From positions 32,001 through 96,000 of the forward strand of contig JBGPFC010000001.1 in assembly GCA_041483195.1 (NCBI GenBank): a DNA stretch of 64,000 nucleotides, in the 5' to 3' direction. The translations under genes were made by a program, and so were the position numbers. Source of the DNA: Candidatus Eiseniibacteriota bacterium. GTDB lineage: Bacteria > Eisenbacteria > RBG-16-71-46. The notes under the pieces are model-generated. The model did no database searches. It saw only the letters and a program-made list of their open reading frames with translations, and was not told where the DNA came from. This document shows positions 28,878 through 53,984 of this stretch, in pieces (the stretch's first letter is position 1; every line of letters begins with the position of its first letter).

Positions 28878-31143
28878 GCGGATCGTTCGCCTCACTCTTC
28901 GCGGCGCCCGCCCTGCTCTGGGGGCTCGGCCTCGTCCTCAAGGTGACGGTGATCCTCGCCGCCGGTGCGATCGTCGCCGGCCTCCTGCGCGGCGCGTCAG
29001 CTGCGGTGCGGCACTTCGTGTGGTTGCTCACGCTCGGCGGCGCTCTGGCGCTGGTCGTCGCGTCGCCGCTCGTGCCCGCGGTCGCGATCCCGGTGGGGAT
29101 GCTGCCCGCGATCGCATCGCCGGAGCGTCTCCCCGCGCGCGCGGCCGCGCCGGTCGGCGCCGTCGCCGCGAGCCCCGATCTCGCGGGCCCAACCGCGGGC
29201 TCGGATCGCATCGTGCGCGCCGCGCGCGCGGCCACTCTTTCGTTCGCGTCCGCCGCGTGGCGTCGCGCCGGCGATTGGCTCATCGGATCGTGGCTGCTCG
29301 GCGCGCTCGCGGTGGCGGCGTGGTGCGCGCTCGGCCATGCGGGCCTGGCGCGCCTCGCACGCCGCGCAACGCCGCTCGATGGCGTTGAGTGGCGGTCGCT
29401 CCTCGAGAGCGTCGCCGCGCGCAGCGGCGTGTCCGCGCCCGTGCGCCTCCTGCGCGCCAGGGCCGCGCGATCTCCGCTGACGTGGGGCGCTCGCCGGCCG
29501 ATCGTGCTGCTTCCGGATGACGCGGACACGTGGCCCACCGAGCGGCGCCGGGTCGTGCTCGCGCACGAGCTGGCGCACGCGGCGCGTGGCGATTACCTGG
29601 TGCAGCTCGTCGCCTGCGCGGCCTGCGCGCTCTACTGGTTTCACCCGCTGGTCTGGATCGCCGCCCGCCGGCTTCACCTCGAGAGCGAGCGCGCCTGCGA
29701 CGATCACGTCCTGGTTCGCGGCGCGTCGGGGCCTGAATACGCCACCCACCTGCTCGACGTCGCGCGCCGATACCGGGCGCTCGGGGCGGGCGGAATGCTC
29801 GCGATCGGGATGGCGCAGTCGTCGCAGCTCGAAGGGCGGTTGCTCGCGGTGCTCGACGAGTCGCGTTCGCGCGAGGTGCCGAGGCGCCGCGCGTTCGGGT
29901 GGGTAGCGCTCGGGCTCATCGTGCTGCCGCTCGCCACACTCCGATTCTCCGCGCGCCCCGCGGCCGCCGCGCCGCGGCCGGAACATTACGCGACGGACGC
30001 GAGATCGGGCAGCGCCAACCTGGAGAGCGCGGTCGGTGCCTCGCCCGGTGAACGACTGGTGATCGATCTGGAGACCGGCGGGTACGTGGATGTTCACGGC
30101 TGGGATCAGCCGATGGTGCGGGTTCGCTCTCAGCTGAGGGGGCGGGATTGGCGTTCCAGCCGCGTGTCGCTCGAGCGCACCGATCGCGGCGCACGGTTAC
30201 ACGCGTGGCAGGCGGACGACCTCCACTCCTCCTCCACCTCGCACCATTTCGAAATCCTGGTGCCGAAACGCTTCGATGTCCGGATCAGCTCCGCCGGGGG
30301 AACCCTGCTGCTGACCGATCTCGATGGAGAGTTCACGGGCAACACCGGCGGTGGCGGGTTCGTGATCAACCACGTGCGCGGAAAGGCGTCGCTCAGCACC
30401 GGCGGCGGAGACATCGACGTGGACGACGTCGATCTGAGCGGCTCCCTCGACACCGGGGGCGGACACGTCAGGCTGTCGAGGACGCGCGGCGATTTGAAGA
30501 GCTGGTCGGGGAGCGGGCCCACCATCGAGGAGGACCGGGGCGAGAAAGAGTCCGGGGATCTGCGTCACGTCACGATCGACGACGCGGGCATCCACGTCGG
30601 GAAGGGCGCCGATGGCTCGGACGCCCGGGGCAAGCTCCACATCAACCAGGGGGGCGGCGACGTCGTACTCGACCGCGCCCCCGACGGAGCCCAGATCCTG
30701 ACCGGCGGCGGGACGATCCGCGTCGGCGAGGCCGGGAACGACGTGAGCGCGACCACCGGCGGTGGTGACATCGAGATCGGACCGGTCTCGGGCTCGGTGC
30801 GCGCGAGCACCGGAGCGGGCGACGTCACCGTGACGATCGTCGGCGCGGATGGGGTCGAGCGCTCCGTCGACATCGGCTCGGGAACGGGATCCGTGGTGCT
30901 CGAGCTGCCCCCGGTCTGTCGGCGCGCTTCGATCTCGAAACGGCCTACACGAACAACTTCGAGCGTCGCACGCGGATCACGAGCGACTGGAATCTGGAAC
31001 AATCCGAGACCCGGCAGTGGGACGGCTCCCACGGCACGCCGCGCAAGTACGTGCGCGCGCGCGGATCGGTCGGCGGGGGCGGCGGGTACATCCGCGTGCG
31101 GATCGTGAACGGCGATATCACGGTGAGGCGCGGACGGACCTGA
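28874..31143 (+). CDS. BlaR1/M56 peptidase membrane sensor with C-terminal DUF4097-like beta-repeat domain; single-base frameshift at ~30908-30912
   Basis: HELAH, YWFHPLVW, ERACDD; TGGGDI repeats; natural C-terminus (GLSARFDLETAYT..NGDITVRRGRT*) continues in a shifted frame. Confidence 0.82.
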
Positions 31144-33030: not shown

Positions 33031-33149
33031 GGGACGAGTATATATTCGGCAGGATCGACTTTCAATCGTAGATAATTCGGAAGTAGCCAGTTAGCGCACG
33101 AATCTCATTTGGCAGAGGCACAGACCATGCCCTTCATGGTGACGCTGAC

Positions 33150-33320
33150 CTAACCCTTGGGCCGCTTCGGCTTGCGGCGTTTCTTCGCGTACTTGCGCTT
33201 CGGACGATCCGGCCAGCCTCCGGCGGGTTTCTTCTTCGCCATGGCCTTCGCTGCAGCGGACTCCCAATCGCCTTCGACCTGAAGCGTCGAAGATTGTCTA
33301 GGCTCTTTTCGCGCGCTCAA
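33150..33320 (-). CDS. Small basic hypothetical protein
   Basis: TTG after GGAGG; EGDWESAAAKAMAKKKPAGGWP, Lys/Arg-rich tail. Confidence 0.5.
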   Translation of the reverse strand: MSARKEPRQSSTLQVEGDWESAAAKAMAKKKPAGGWPDRPKRKYAKKRRKPKRPKG

Positions 33321-33472
33321 TCGGCCTCCGAATCGCTGCACATTCACGAATGCCGCGTGAAAGGATGACCAAATGCCCCTTGACAGACGACAGGCCGTTG
33401 ACCTTCAACGCGATCCATTGACGGATGCAGGCCATCCGTGCGATAGTGCGCTCCGTCGGCGTCTAGCCCATC

Positions 33473-33901
33473 ATGGAGGGGGAAGTGAAACCCGATATCA
33501 AAGACTTTGACTCGCTGCGTCGGAAACTTCTCGTCGAACAGATCAACGCGTACAAGGGCCAGATCCAGAGGCTCCAGCGCCGCGTTGATGAACTTGAATC
33601 GTTCCGCGGCTGGCTCGACTCGACCGCGAAAGCGATCGCTGAAGGTGCTTCCACTCCGCCCTCCAAGAACGGCGGCAAGACGCTTGCGGGATACATCGCA
33701 CAGGTCCTCACGGCGGCGATCCCCAAGGCTCTTGCGGCGCCCGAAATCGGAAAGCGGGTCGAGAGTCTCGGCTACTCGACGAGCGCGAAGACCGCCCTTC
33801 CGCAGAAGATCCGCGCCGAGCTGCTGAGGCAGATCAAGAAGGGCGGGCTTGGAATCGTTCGGACCGGCCGCGGCAAGTACACGATCCGGGACAGGCACTG
33901 A
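33473..33901 (+). CDS. Coiled-coil + winged-helix (HARE-HTH-like) DNA-binding protein
   Basis: N-terminal heptads; C-terminal TLAGYIAQVL..EIGKRVESLGY..IVRTGRGKYTI. Confidence 0.55.
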   Translation: MEGEVKPDIKDFDSLRRKLLVEQINAYKGQIQRLQRRVDELESFRGWLDSTAKAIAEGASTPPSKNGGKTLAGYIAQVLTAAIPKALAAPEIGKRVESLGYSTSAKTALPQKIRAELLRQIKKGGLGIVRTGRGKYTIRDRH

Positions 33902-33931
33902 CGGTGCCATGTCGCTGACAGGGAGGTGAGC

Positions 33932-33967
33932 ATGCAAACGAGAGAGGCCGACTGGGCGGCCGAGTAA
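33932..33967 (+). other. 11-codon micro-ORF MQTREADWAAE* with strong RBS (possible leader peptide)
   Basis: GGAGGTG immediately upstream; its 3' end is complementary to the loop of the next hairpin. Confidence 0.3.
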
Positions 33968-34044
33968 ACGAGAAGGGGAGCGGCGGCTCTTGCTTGGTCG
34001 GCCGAGCGCCACTCCCCACCCAGGCAGTTCTTCTGGTCCGGATT

Positions 34045-34118
34045 CCCCGGCTAGCCCAACAGGAAGAGGCGCACGCTTTGGAAGCGTGGCAGTAGGGGTC
34101 CGAATCCCCTGCCGGGGA
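34045..34118 (+). tRNA. Atypical tRNA-Pro(UGG) or tRNA-like element
   Basis: Acceptor CCCCGGC/GCCGGGG (7/7) with A73; T8A9; D arm GCC..GG..GGC; anticodon stem CACGC/GCGTG, loop TTTGGAA; T stem AGGGG/CCCCT, loop TCCGAAT (C at 55); no adjacent CCA. Confidence 0.65.
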
Positions 34119-34141
34119 TTTCCATGACGCTGACATGGAGC

Positions 34142-34161
34142 GGGGCTTGCTGTCAAGCCCC
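34142..34161. other. Perfect 8-bp hairpin GGGGCTTG-CTGT-CAAGCCCC between the tRNA-like element and the nuclease gene
   Basis: Read directly from the sequence. Confidence 0.5.
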
Positions 34162-34182
34162 CCAATTTCGCAAGGAGTTACC

Positions 34183-34470
34183 ATGCCGTTTCCTGAGCAG
34201 AAAGCGAGGCCGTTCACGAAGGATGCGAGCTTCGCGCTCAACCCGAACCAGCTTGGATGCTACGGACTGTTTGTGGCTAACGGTCCGTGGGTCTATGTCG
34301 GCAAGGGCGACATTCGCCAGAGATTGCTCGATCACTTCAACGGCGACAACGGCTGCATCACCGGGCAGCACCCGACTCACTGGAAAGATGTCGTGACGGC
34401 TGATGCGGACGCCGTCGAGAAGCAACTGATCGTGGAACTCAAGCCGCATTGCAACCTCAGGGTGGGCTAG
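34183..34470 (+). CDS. Minimal stand-alone GIY-YIG-superfamily nuclease (95 aa)
   Basis: GCYGL..VYVGKG..IRQRL..H..E..L.P.CN pattern; AAGGAG RBS. Confidence 0.7.
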   Translation: MPFPEQKARPFTKDASFALNPNQLGCYGLFVANGPWVYVGKGDIRQRLLDHFNGDNGCITGQHPTHWKDVVTADADAVEKQLIVELKPHCNLRVG

Positions 34471-34706
34471 GAACATCCTGAGCCGGTTCCATCGAACCGT
34501 CCAGATAAGCGGTGAAAGAAGAAGTCGCGCCCGTTCACGGTGACGATAGTGAACAATGCCGTGGACTTCACGCTGATCGAGTGCCCGGAAGTCTCGTCTT
34601 GGATCTCAACGTCCTTGATGAAGCCGGGCGCTCGCAGCTTGCGAAGCATGGTGCCCACGATCTGCGTGCCGCGGATCGTAATCCGGTCCCATGCGCTGCC
34701 GCTCAT
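34467..34706 (-). CDS. Small hypothetical protein convergent with the nuclease gene
   Basis: 79-aa ORF with plausible composition (VTVNGRDFFFHRLSGRFDGTG); stop codons overlap. Confidence 0.5.
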   Translation of the reverse strand: MSGSAWDRITIRGTQIVGTMLRKLRAPGFIKDVEIQDETSGHSISVKSTALFTIVTVNGRDFFFHRLSGRFDGTGSGCS

Positions 34707-34725
34707 TTGCTAGACTCGGCGCTTC

Positions 34726-53666: not shown

Positions 53667-53783
53667 GGCGTCGCGCGCGCCTCAATCGAAAGGCCCTGCC
53701 CCGGAGAGTGAGTCTCGGAGGAAGGGCCACAAAGCGACGCCGTCCACCTTCGACGCTCTCTCGCGAAGCGTCACGGGCTCATC

Positions 53784-53946
53784 GCTTCCGGGCAGGTTTC
53801 CTGACTCAGGGCCGCTTCGGGTCTCGCCTTCCCGATCGTGAGATCAGTGGCGTGTGAGACCCGGGGAGCCCATTACAGTGGCGGGACCGTGGGGGAATTT
53901 CACCCCTCTTCCCTATTAACCCACCTCGTGTGGGCACCCGGAAGAT
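53784..53946 (-). ncRNA. Cobalamin (AdoCbl) riboswitch
   Basis: Minus strand: AATAGGGAA, GGTGAAATTCC, CCCGCCACTGTAA, GCCACTG..GGGAAGGC, AGTCAGGAAACCTGCC. Confidence 0.95.
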
Positions 53947-53955
53947 GTCGATAGC

Positions 53956-53984
53956 AATATGGGTGGGGCGGCGCGCGGCGTCAA
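53956..53984 (-). promoter_or_regulatory. Sigma70-type promoter for the B12 operon: TTGACG-17-CATATT
   Basis: Canonical spacing immediately upstream of the riboswitch. Confidence 0.65.

Follow-up and report, generated by a model that had tools for sequence, protein, structure and literature searches.

A small gene for a GIY-YIG nuclease-like protein in Candidatus Eiseniibacteriota bacterium is preceded by a tRNA gene with a proline anticodon and unusual loops. The first-pass annotation regarded the two as a candidate RNA-plus-nuclease defense or addiction module. The questions raised by this locus are what kind of tRNA this is, how it came to lie between the genes lrp and thrH, and whether it belongs to the nuclease. 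We analyzed the locus in its window, the whole stretch of 64,000 nucleotides taken from contig JBGPFC010000001.1, and all coordinates given below without a locus name are positions of this window.

An additional tRNA gene in an island between lrp and thrH

The tRNA gene is located at positions 34045-34118 of the plus strand. As described in the first-pass annotation, its stems are perfect (7/7 pairs in the acceptor stem, 5/5 in the anticodon stem and 5/5 in the T stem) and it carries C1:G72, A73 and the anticodon UGG. The anticodon loop is UUUGGAA (A37) and the T loop UCCGAAU (C55), the D arm and core are of the tRNA-Leu type, the variable loop has 5 nt, and CCA is not encoded. ARAGORN calls the gene tRNA-Pro(UGG), and its Rfam RF00005 score of 46.9 bits (E 2e-8) is well above the gathering score of 29, so both programs accept it as a tRNA; it has the lowest score of the 20 RF00005 matches compared, the other 19 being host tRNAs with 54-73 bits. 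The features first singled out as deviant (C55, A37, no CCA) are all present but carry little weight: the canonical host tRNA-Pro(UGG), which is encoded on contig C53, likewise has no encoded CCA, and A37 together with C55 is found in tRNA-Pro(UGG) of several tRNA clusters (L034, L065/L066/L090, L067 and L097), so that none of these features is remarkable in itself. What is truly anomalous is that a short-armed tRNA carries a D arm of the tRNA-Leu type. The window cloverleaf is a real tRNA gene, additional to the host's own tRNA-Pro(UGG).

Pattern and blastn searches of viral contigs, phages, plasmids and metagenomes revealed no short-armed twin of this tRNA, and no close homologues of the tRNA or its leader were detected by exact patterns in viral contigs or by blastn in phages and plasmids. 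The metagenome pattern search returned 63 stretches, mostly chance matches, and the Pro cloverleaves among them were cluster tRNAs; a pattern search of 205 other genomes of the phylum was negative. Identity with an int-alpA/C4-type RNA was rejected (19.8 bits, gathering score 35.8). Elsewhere in the window, an ARAGORN call for tRNA-Thr at 29039-29132 lies inside a protein-coding gene, has no Rfam match and looks like a GC-rich artefact, and a cobalamin riboswitch is present at 53774-53956 on the minus strand (112 bits).

The tRNA gene is part of an insertion. In 19 relative loci examined, both lrp and thrH could be placed in 17, and in all 17 the spacer between them measures 103-249 nt, compared to 1695 nt here. 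Similarity to the relatives ends at 33079 (left junction 33079/33080) and returns at 34708. The GC content of the 1.6-kb island is 0.57-0.63 versus about 0.70 in the flanks, which bears out the lower GC noticed earlier between lrp and thrH. Contigs from four DNA runs included one in which 33080 and 34708 are joined with 38 other letters between them; it probably stems from another strain or species. In another genus, the same spacer is interrupted by an insertion that differs from this one, is about 3.2 kb in size and contains a long ORF resembling a secreted protein (L032, G010:C22:3300-8000).

From left to right, the island contains a small basic ORF on the minus strand, a gene for a coiled-coil winged-helix (wHTH) protein, a leader, the tRNA, the GIY-YIG gene and a clipped convergent ORF. 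The small basic ORF (33150-33320, 56 aa, likely TTG start) has no Pfam family match and is of a type that ends just inside IS1595 element ends; it could be aligned with ORFs of the related loci L141, L180, L184 and L185, with 59% identity over 27 aa to that of L141 (E 1e-6, pairwise). At 33078-33101 (plus strand) lies what is likely the left end of an IS1595-family element, a terminal inverted repeat with 17/21 positions identical to the left end of element L179. On a matrix derived from the ends of 10 elements, 33078 is the top of 127,952 window positions with 14.5 bits but only 10th genome-wide; left-out true ends score 12-34, except the mis-registered L208. This left end coincides with the junction found independently with the relatives, whose native spacers share ATTCGG at the 33078 end, so that the candidate end overlaps native sequence. 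No right inverted repeat was found at the island, and the 8 bp AGATAATT before the left end have no copy at the right junction. The repeat CTCATTTG (33104 and 34702) was rejected as a target duplication, since it lies inside the left end and is without convincing inverted repeats. A DDE_Tnp_IS1595 transposase was detected neither in the island nor, by tblastn, in the assembly, which is 96.8% complete.

IS1595-family elements with passenger genes are represented by ISNwi and ISNha5. Compared to the related loci, which show the family features described in the accessible part of PMC8101967, the island keeps a matching end and the passenger types, but it differs from an intact element by the missing transposase, right end and duplication. 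Since these three are absent, we infer the IS1595 origin from one end and the gene content; the island is likely a transposase-less left-end remnant of an IS1595-family element that has lost its right end.

The wHTH gene (33473-33901, plus strand) encodes a candidate regulator of 142 aa with a HARE-HTH-like winged helix. A predicted sigma-70-like promoter lies upstream (33418-33447, plus strand; 9/12 consensus matches, extended TG). The protein has 27 matches among cluster representatives; two of its relatives match HARE-HTH weakly, below the cut-off, and the Atlas places HARE-HTH on 13% of one cluster. The family profile also matches an ORF just upstream of the tRNA in the IS1595 locus L185 (E 1e-5), where the order is that of the window: a wHTH gene of the same family, followed by a tRNA with C55 and C1:G72. 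Downstream of the wHTH gene, the leader (33918-34044, plus strand) contains a strong RBS, an 11-codon ORF (33932-33967) and a long hairpin (33975-34017). An imperfect palindrome is present in two copies, CCATGWCGCTGACAKGG at 33907-33924 (repeat D1/I11) and a second at 34122-34138 that can pair with the first in RNA; the motif TGWCGCTGACA occurs twice genome-wide, both times in this island. The twin palindromes bracket the leader and the tRNA and may be an operator or the closing helix of an RNA. The 8-bp hairpin reported earlier behind the tRNA is confirmed at 34142-34161 (plus strand) and has no U tail, and no U-tailed terminator was found after the tRNA. Together with the promoter-like site before the wHTH gene, this suggests a single transcript running through the nuclease gene.

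A leucine core combined with a proline anticodon

The D arm of the window tRNA, GCCC-AACAGGAAGA-GGC, matches that of host tRNA-Leu, GCGG-AACTGGCAGA-CGC, with the 12:23 pair compensated, and its core (A15:U48, A20a, G21, A22) is of the tRNA-Leu type. Among 30 short-armed matches in the genome, the window copy is the only one with a Leu-type D arm. The tRNA was further scored with R1, a family model of transposon-borne tRNAs that was trained without the window tRNA. It reaches 54.5 bits on R1 versus 46.9 on Rfam, while the host tRNA-Pro(UGG) behaves the other way around (34.0 versus 65.5) and two host tRNA-Leu score 73.6 and 76.7 on R1 versus 58.7 and 54.2. All short-armed host and cluster tRNAs tested stayed below the window copy (best 48.8), which aligns to R1 with a clean gap at the variable arm. 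Judged by scores and alignment, the window tRNA belongs to the family of transposon-borne Leu-type tRNAs.

Its identity elements are mixed. The canonical bacterial tRNA-Pro determinants G72, A73, G35 and G36 are present; the Levitt pair G15:C48 is replaced by A15:U48 and G37 by A37. These determinants are taken from the part of PMC9976931 available to us, the text of which gives A37 and G37 in different sentences. The same part of that source lists A73, A15-U48, G18G19 and A20a as Leu identity in E. coli, with anticodon and variable arm not needed. All of these are found in the window tRNA, which lacks the G18:U55 contact (it has C55) and the long class II variable arm (it has a 5-nt loop); in the portions of the literature consulted, leucine identity depends on G18:U55 in both E. 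coli and Aquifex, and in Aquifex also on how the variable arm is oriented. The window copy is likely ambiguous, since the core Leu set is complete except for U55 and the terminal Pro set except for G15:C48 and G37. It is likely an attenuated, dual-identity member of the family that would be weakly charged by LeuRS and/or ProRS.

The gene might also be an ordinary cognate tRNA-Pro of the phage type, which supplements or replaces the host tRNA-Pro(UGG), for instance once an anticodon nuclease has cleaved the latter or if m1G37 is in short supply. C1:G72, A73, G35, G36 and the short arm are all Pro-like, and tRNA-Pro(UGG) genes of phages and tRNA arrays share A37, C55 and the lack of CCA with the window tRNA. 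However, these genes have ordinary D arms, are clustered with many cognate tRNAs and score only 27.8-46.7 on R1; moreover, the Levitt pair of the window tRNA is that of leucine and the codon CCA is absent from the four island genes. We consider a cognate tRNA-Pro unlikely.

Mismatched tRNAs in IS1595-family transposons

Viral contigs were scanned for the D arm of L099, a related locus on a phage contig, combined with UGG and A37. The scan returned 50 stretches, nine of them full cloverleaves (eight distinct). Of the eight, three have an IS1595 transposase no more than 1.2 kb away, a fourth neighbors a homologue of the small ORF, a fifth neighbors a coiled-coil wHTH-like gene and a sixth is the L099 tRNA; the remaining two have no neighbors of these kinds. 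The reverse scan covered the best 80 of 456 IS1595 transposase matches; among these 80 loci, 13 contain non-cognate long-armed tRNAs (11/73 clusters when the two query-source loci are removed), with the anticodons UGG (seven loci), AGG, UGC (two), CGC, UAU and UUA. The R1 model adds a UGG gene in L181, giving UGG in eight IS loci of this set, the transposases of which are about 40-57% identical to the query. In the control, phage-methylase loci, R1, the scanner and credible ARAGORN calls found none (0/79 loci, 0/67 clusters with the query's own removed). A non-cognate anticodon occurs in 0/10 long-armed host tRNAs, and five shuffles gave no match. Fisher's test of IS1595 versus control loci yields p 7e-4, which overstates the significance, since related loci are not independent.

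The related loci encode Zn-ribbon and DDE_Tnp_IS1595 transposases and have terminal inverted repeats and 8-bp duplications. Terminal inverted repeats enclose the tRNA of L179, L180, L184, L196 and L225, and each of these elements is bordered by a perfect 8-bp duplication. Five more elements have inverted repeats around the tRNA but lack a matching duplication; the tRNA of L209 lies outside the ends of its element. In an alignment of 16 members, 97% of 320 stem cells pair and 18/20 pairs change on both sides; as the members were chosen for their cloverleaves, this covariation speaks for intactness and not for discovery. Thus, IS1595-family transposons repeatedly carry tRNAs with Leu/Ser bodies and non-cognate anticodons, mostly UGG. 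Part of the UGG bias may be due to shared descent, since UGG is one base away from the Leu anticodon UAG. Leu-body UGG tRNAs without IS genes nearby were found in L154/L157, L158 and L175. In 401 genomes of the phylum of G206, the D-arm/anticodon pattern gave 12 matches, which is the control level, and one true cloverleaf, that of L175.

The tRNA does not seem to recode the transposase of its own element: in 83 transposases, no Pro codon occurs in the 15 columns with at least 50% Leu, and there are no internal stops, so that we rejected this idea. Several members of the IS1595 loci are irregular. Genes for tRNA-like RNAs of 67-69 nt with a reduced D arm are located directly behind wHTH or small-ORF genes (L238:3874-3940, plus strand; L252:3939-4006, minus strand; L253:2514-2582, plus strand). 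Leu-type tRNA ends surround an extra insert of about 100 nt in L233:5149-5331 (plus strand) and a long branched arm in L181:4003-4117 (minus strand). Inside the IS1595 element of L229, a Leu-body tRNA with the ochre-reading anticodon UUA (L229:4570-4653, minus strand) and a short-armed ACU tRNA flank a wHTH gene.

Two known groups of tRNAs can be compared with this family. The allo-tRNAs, as far as the accessible text of PMC5389517 and PMC7609411 describes them, are likewise extra, long-armed tRNAs with identity elements that do not match the anticodon; they originate from soil and sediment and lie near transposon-related and toxin-antitoxin genes. Their acceptor branches are 8/4 or 9/3 and their identity is mostly Ser/Ala (PMC5389517), whereas the window tRNA and its family have a 7/5 branch and a Leu core. 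The words 'UGG' and 'proline' are absent from the main text of PMC5389517, the supplements of which could list such tRNAs. The second group is tRNAProX of Streptomyces and Kitasatospora (PMC10404621, PMC11415595, in the parts available), which is likewise a natural bacterial mismatch of body and anticodon, and which mistranslates and is toxic in E. coli (PMC10404621). Its polarity is reversed, with a Pro body, a non-Pro anticodon and a dedicated ProRSx beside it, whereas the island combines a Pro anticodon with a Leu core and has no synthetase gene, so that it does not belong to this type; the main text of PMC10404621 contains none of the strings 'transpos', 'phage' and 'mobile'. In open-access literature, at the level of listings and abstracts, we came across neither IS1595-borne mismatched tRNAs nor cassettes that combine a tRNA with a GIY-YIG gene. 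The closest relatives in this literature are the allo-tRNAs with their 8/4 or 9/3 geometry.

The GIY-YIG nuclease and a possible role for the tRNA

The 95-aa ORF at 34183-34470 (plus strand) encodes a minimal GIY-YIG nuclease-like protein with 176 homologues. The earlier assignment to GIY-YIG holds: the Pfam match is below the cut-off (E 0.0043, score 17.7 versus 22.6), the family profile matches UvrC N-terminal GIY-YIG structures (E 0.004-0.04), and the protein has the superfamily motif GxY-(10-11)-YxG with conserved Arg, His/Tyr, Glu and Asn. Y27, Y38, R47, H51, E79 and N91 are invariant in 108 aligned sequences, and the roles of the catalytic residues are those in UvrC and I-TevI. The protein has an intact catalytic set and is a predicted nuclease. 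Motif and catalytic residues are common to stand-alone GIY-YIG nucleases and the UvrC N-terminal domain, but the window family is distinct in its length of 94-95 aa, its score below the Pfam cut-off and a conserved convergent partner gene. This partner (34467-34706, minus strand; 137 homologues) has lost its 5' end at the right junction: 81/83 homologues extend at least 8 residues further (median 18). The stop codons of the two genes overlap (CTAG, 34467-34470).

Is the tRNA part of a dedicated defense or addiction module in which a tRNA-like RNA serves the nuclease as decoy, antitoxin or processing signal? Besides the invariant catalytic residues, two homologue loci favor this. The GIY-YIG protein of L099 is 67% identical to that of the window, and a UGG tRNA lies 120 nt upstream; leader, tRNA, hairpin, GIY-YIG gene and convergent partner follow in the same order as in the window, and no transposase was found in the 2.5 kb flanks. 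Positions 33918-33959 of the leader (42 nt) align to the L099 leader with a score of 43, which none of 2000 shuffles reached (maximum 28), and the predicted leader folds are similar; a GCTTG..TCAAGC hairpin is also present 3' of the L099 tRNA, with a similarity that is not significant (343/2000 shuffles as high). In L005, an allo-like UAG cloverleaf with the 8+3-bp fold of allo-tRNAs lies about 370 nt upstream of the GIY-YIG gene, behind a coiled-coil wHTH-like gene.

The wider set of homologues argues against such a module. We compared 16 independent loci (L001-L010, L099-L102, L111 and L112), leaving out a false match (L011), a duplicate (L113) and fragments (L114 and L104). Only L099 and L005 have an odd cloverleaf in the 700 nt before the GIY-YIG gene; the other 14 do not. 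A UGG tRNA directly upstream, with the shared leader, is found in L099 alone; the tRNA upstream in L001 is an ordinary tRNA-Ala. The L099 tRNA itself is long-armed with a tRNA-Leu body and differs from the window tRNA in acceptor stem and variable arm. The steadier neighbor of the nuclease is the convergent protein and not the RNA: the two genes are convergent in ten loci (L001-L006, L099, L101, L102 and L112), and the partner also occurs alone. Furthermore, the nuclease profile finds nothing in any of the 80 IS1595 loci, not even in the 13 that carry a mismatched tRNA. Members of the tRNA family mostly occur without GIY-YIG; their neighbors are IS1595 transposases, the small basic ORF and the wHTH gene. 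In type III toxin-antitoxin systems, the RNA regularly precedes the toxin gene and consists of tandem repeats, whereas here a tandem array is absent and an odd cloverleaf precedes the gene in 2/16 loci, which does not fit this type. The expected upstream cloverleaf was thus recovered in L099 with a significantly similar leader but is no general property of the nuclease homologues, and we now assign the dedicated module proposed in the first-pass annotation a low probability.

IS1595- or IS1-family transposases are present in 4/16 of the nuclease loci. The protein has homologues in 3/401 genomes of the phylum of G206 and in none of 205 other genomes of the host's own phylum, and tblastn against phages and plasmids gave no match. 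The GIY-YIG gene is likely a mobile, swappable fellow passenger, linked with the tRNA in just one sub-lineage. Other RNAs were observed near the homologues. In L006, an odd short-armed tRNA (L006:1799-1872, plus strand; ACA anticodon, C55, short D arm) lies upstream of an IS1-family transposase, which is followed by GIY-YIG and partner; L002:2835-3000 and L004:2838-3000 share a hairpin-rich spacer of about 165 nt between a small ORF and GIY-YIG that matches no Rfam family; and a DUF3800-VIII RNA is found at L102:2783-2847 (minus strand).

Starting from the observed anatomy and insertion of the island, the tRNA family and its place inside intact elements, we favor, with moderate confidence, the following explanation: the window holds an extra tRNA with a Leu core and a UGG anticodon in a likely remnant of an IS1595-family element, the mismatched tRNAs of its relatives would mistranslate, and the GIY-YIG gene would be a swappable passenger. 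In the mechanism that we propose, the window tRNA would be co-transcribed with the wHTH gene and the nuclease gene, released by RNase P and 3' trimming, and provided with CCA by the host. Typical family members with a long arm and UGG (G1:C72, U55) would receive leucine from LeuRS, an enzyme that ignores the anticodon, and would insert it at the Pro codons CCA and CCG. The wHTH protein might hold down the tRNA and turn it into a conditional mistranslation effector, acting in stress, addiction or abortive anti-phage responses to the benefit of the element. Since tRNAs with the opposite mismatch are toxic in E. coli (PMC10404621, accessible part), a regulated conditional effector would be the likeliest benefit. 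With C1:G72 and a 5-nt variable loop, the window copy would have moved closer to Pro identity, and it no longer has U55. A stronger version, in which the Leu-core/Pro-anticodon RNA is an RNA-only toxin spread by IS1595 elements and controlled by the wHTH protein, which would disturb translation when induced and serve addiction or abortive defense against phages, with the window copy reverting to proline (in acceptor and arm already, in the core not) and one sub-lineage forming a two-effector system with GIY-YIG, is offered only tentatively.

Instead of being translated with, the RNA could be structural: an RNase P/3'-trimming signal that splits the wHTH-nuclease transcript, a decoy for a synthetase or toxin, or an integrase landing pad. 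Many members are intercistronic or directly precede the transposase gene, some have very long arms or reduced D arms (L181, L233, L238, L252 and L253), and most tested allo-tRNA(UAU) near transposons or toxin-antitoxin genes were inactive in translation, according to the accessible text of PMC5389517. Yet the 7-nt anticodon loop with pyrimidines at 32-33 and a purine at 37, and the recurrence of UGG in eight IS loci with such divergent transposases, suggest that the anticodon is read, which makes a purely structural RNA very unlikely in our view. A functionless pseudogene decaying in a dead element, for which the truncation of the element, the lowest Rfam score and the absence from 205 other genomes of the phylum could be cited, is highly improbable, since none of the 17 pairs in the acceptor, anticodon and T stems is broken and, where the copy departs from the family, the change is compensated or is a clean arm loss. 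Intact stems, a host copy elsewhere and a family residing in IS1595 elements agree with the initial view of a selected RNA, a tRNA borne by a mobile element and not a decayed host tRNA-Pro.

The favored explanation, a mismatched tRNA carried by IS1595-family elements, has consequences beyond this locus. If such tRNAs are charged according to their body and not their anticodon, ordinary insertion sequences would move code-altering tRNAs among soil and sediment bacteria. The class would be hidden in databases, since annotation tools name such genes by their anticodon (here tRNA-Pro). The short-armed window copy offers a natural test of the identity rules of LeuRS versus ProRS. If the explanation is true, the link of allo-tRNAs to transposons and toxin-antitoxin genes would gain a defined, small and clonable unit, and mistranslation as a selected, mobile trait would become directly testable.
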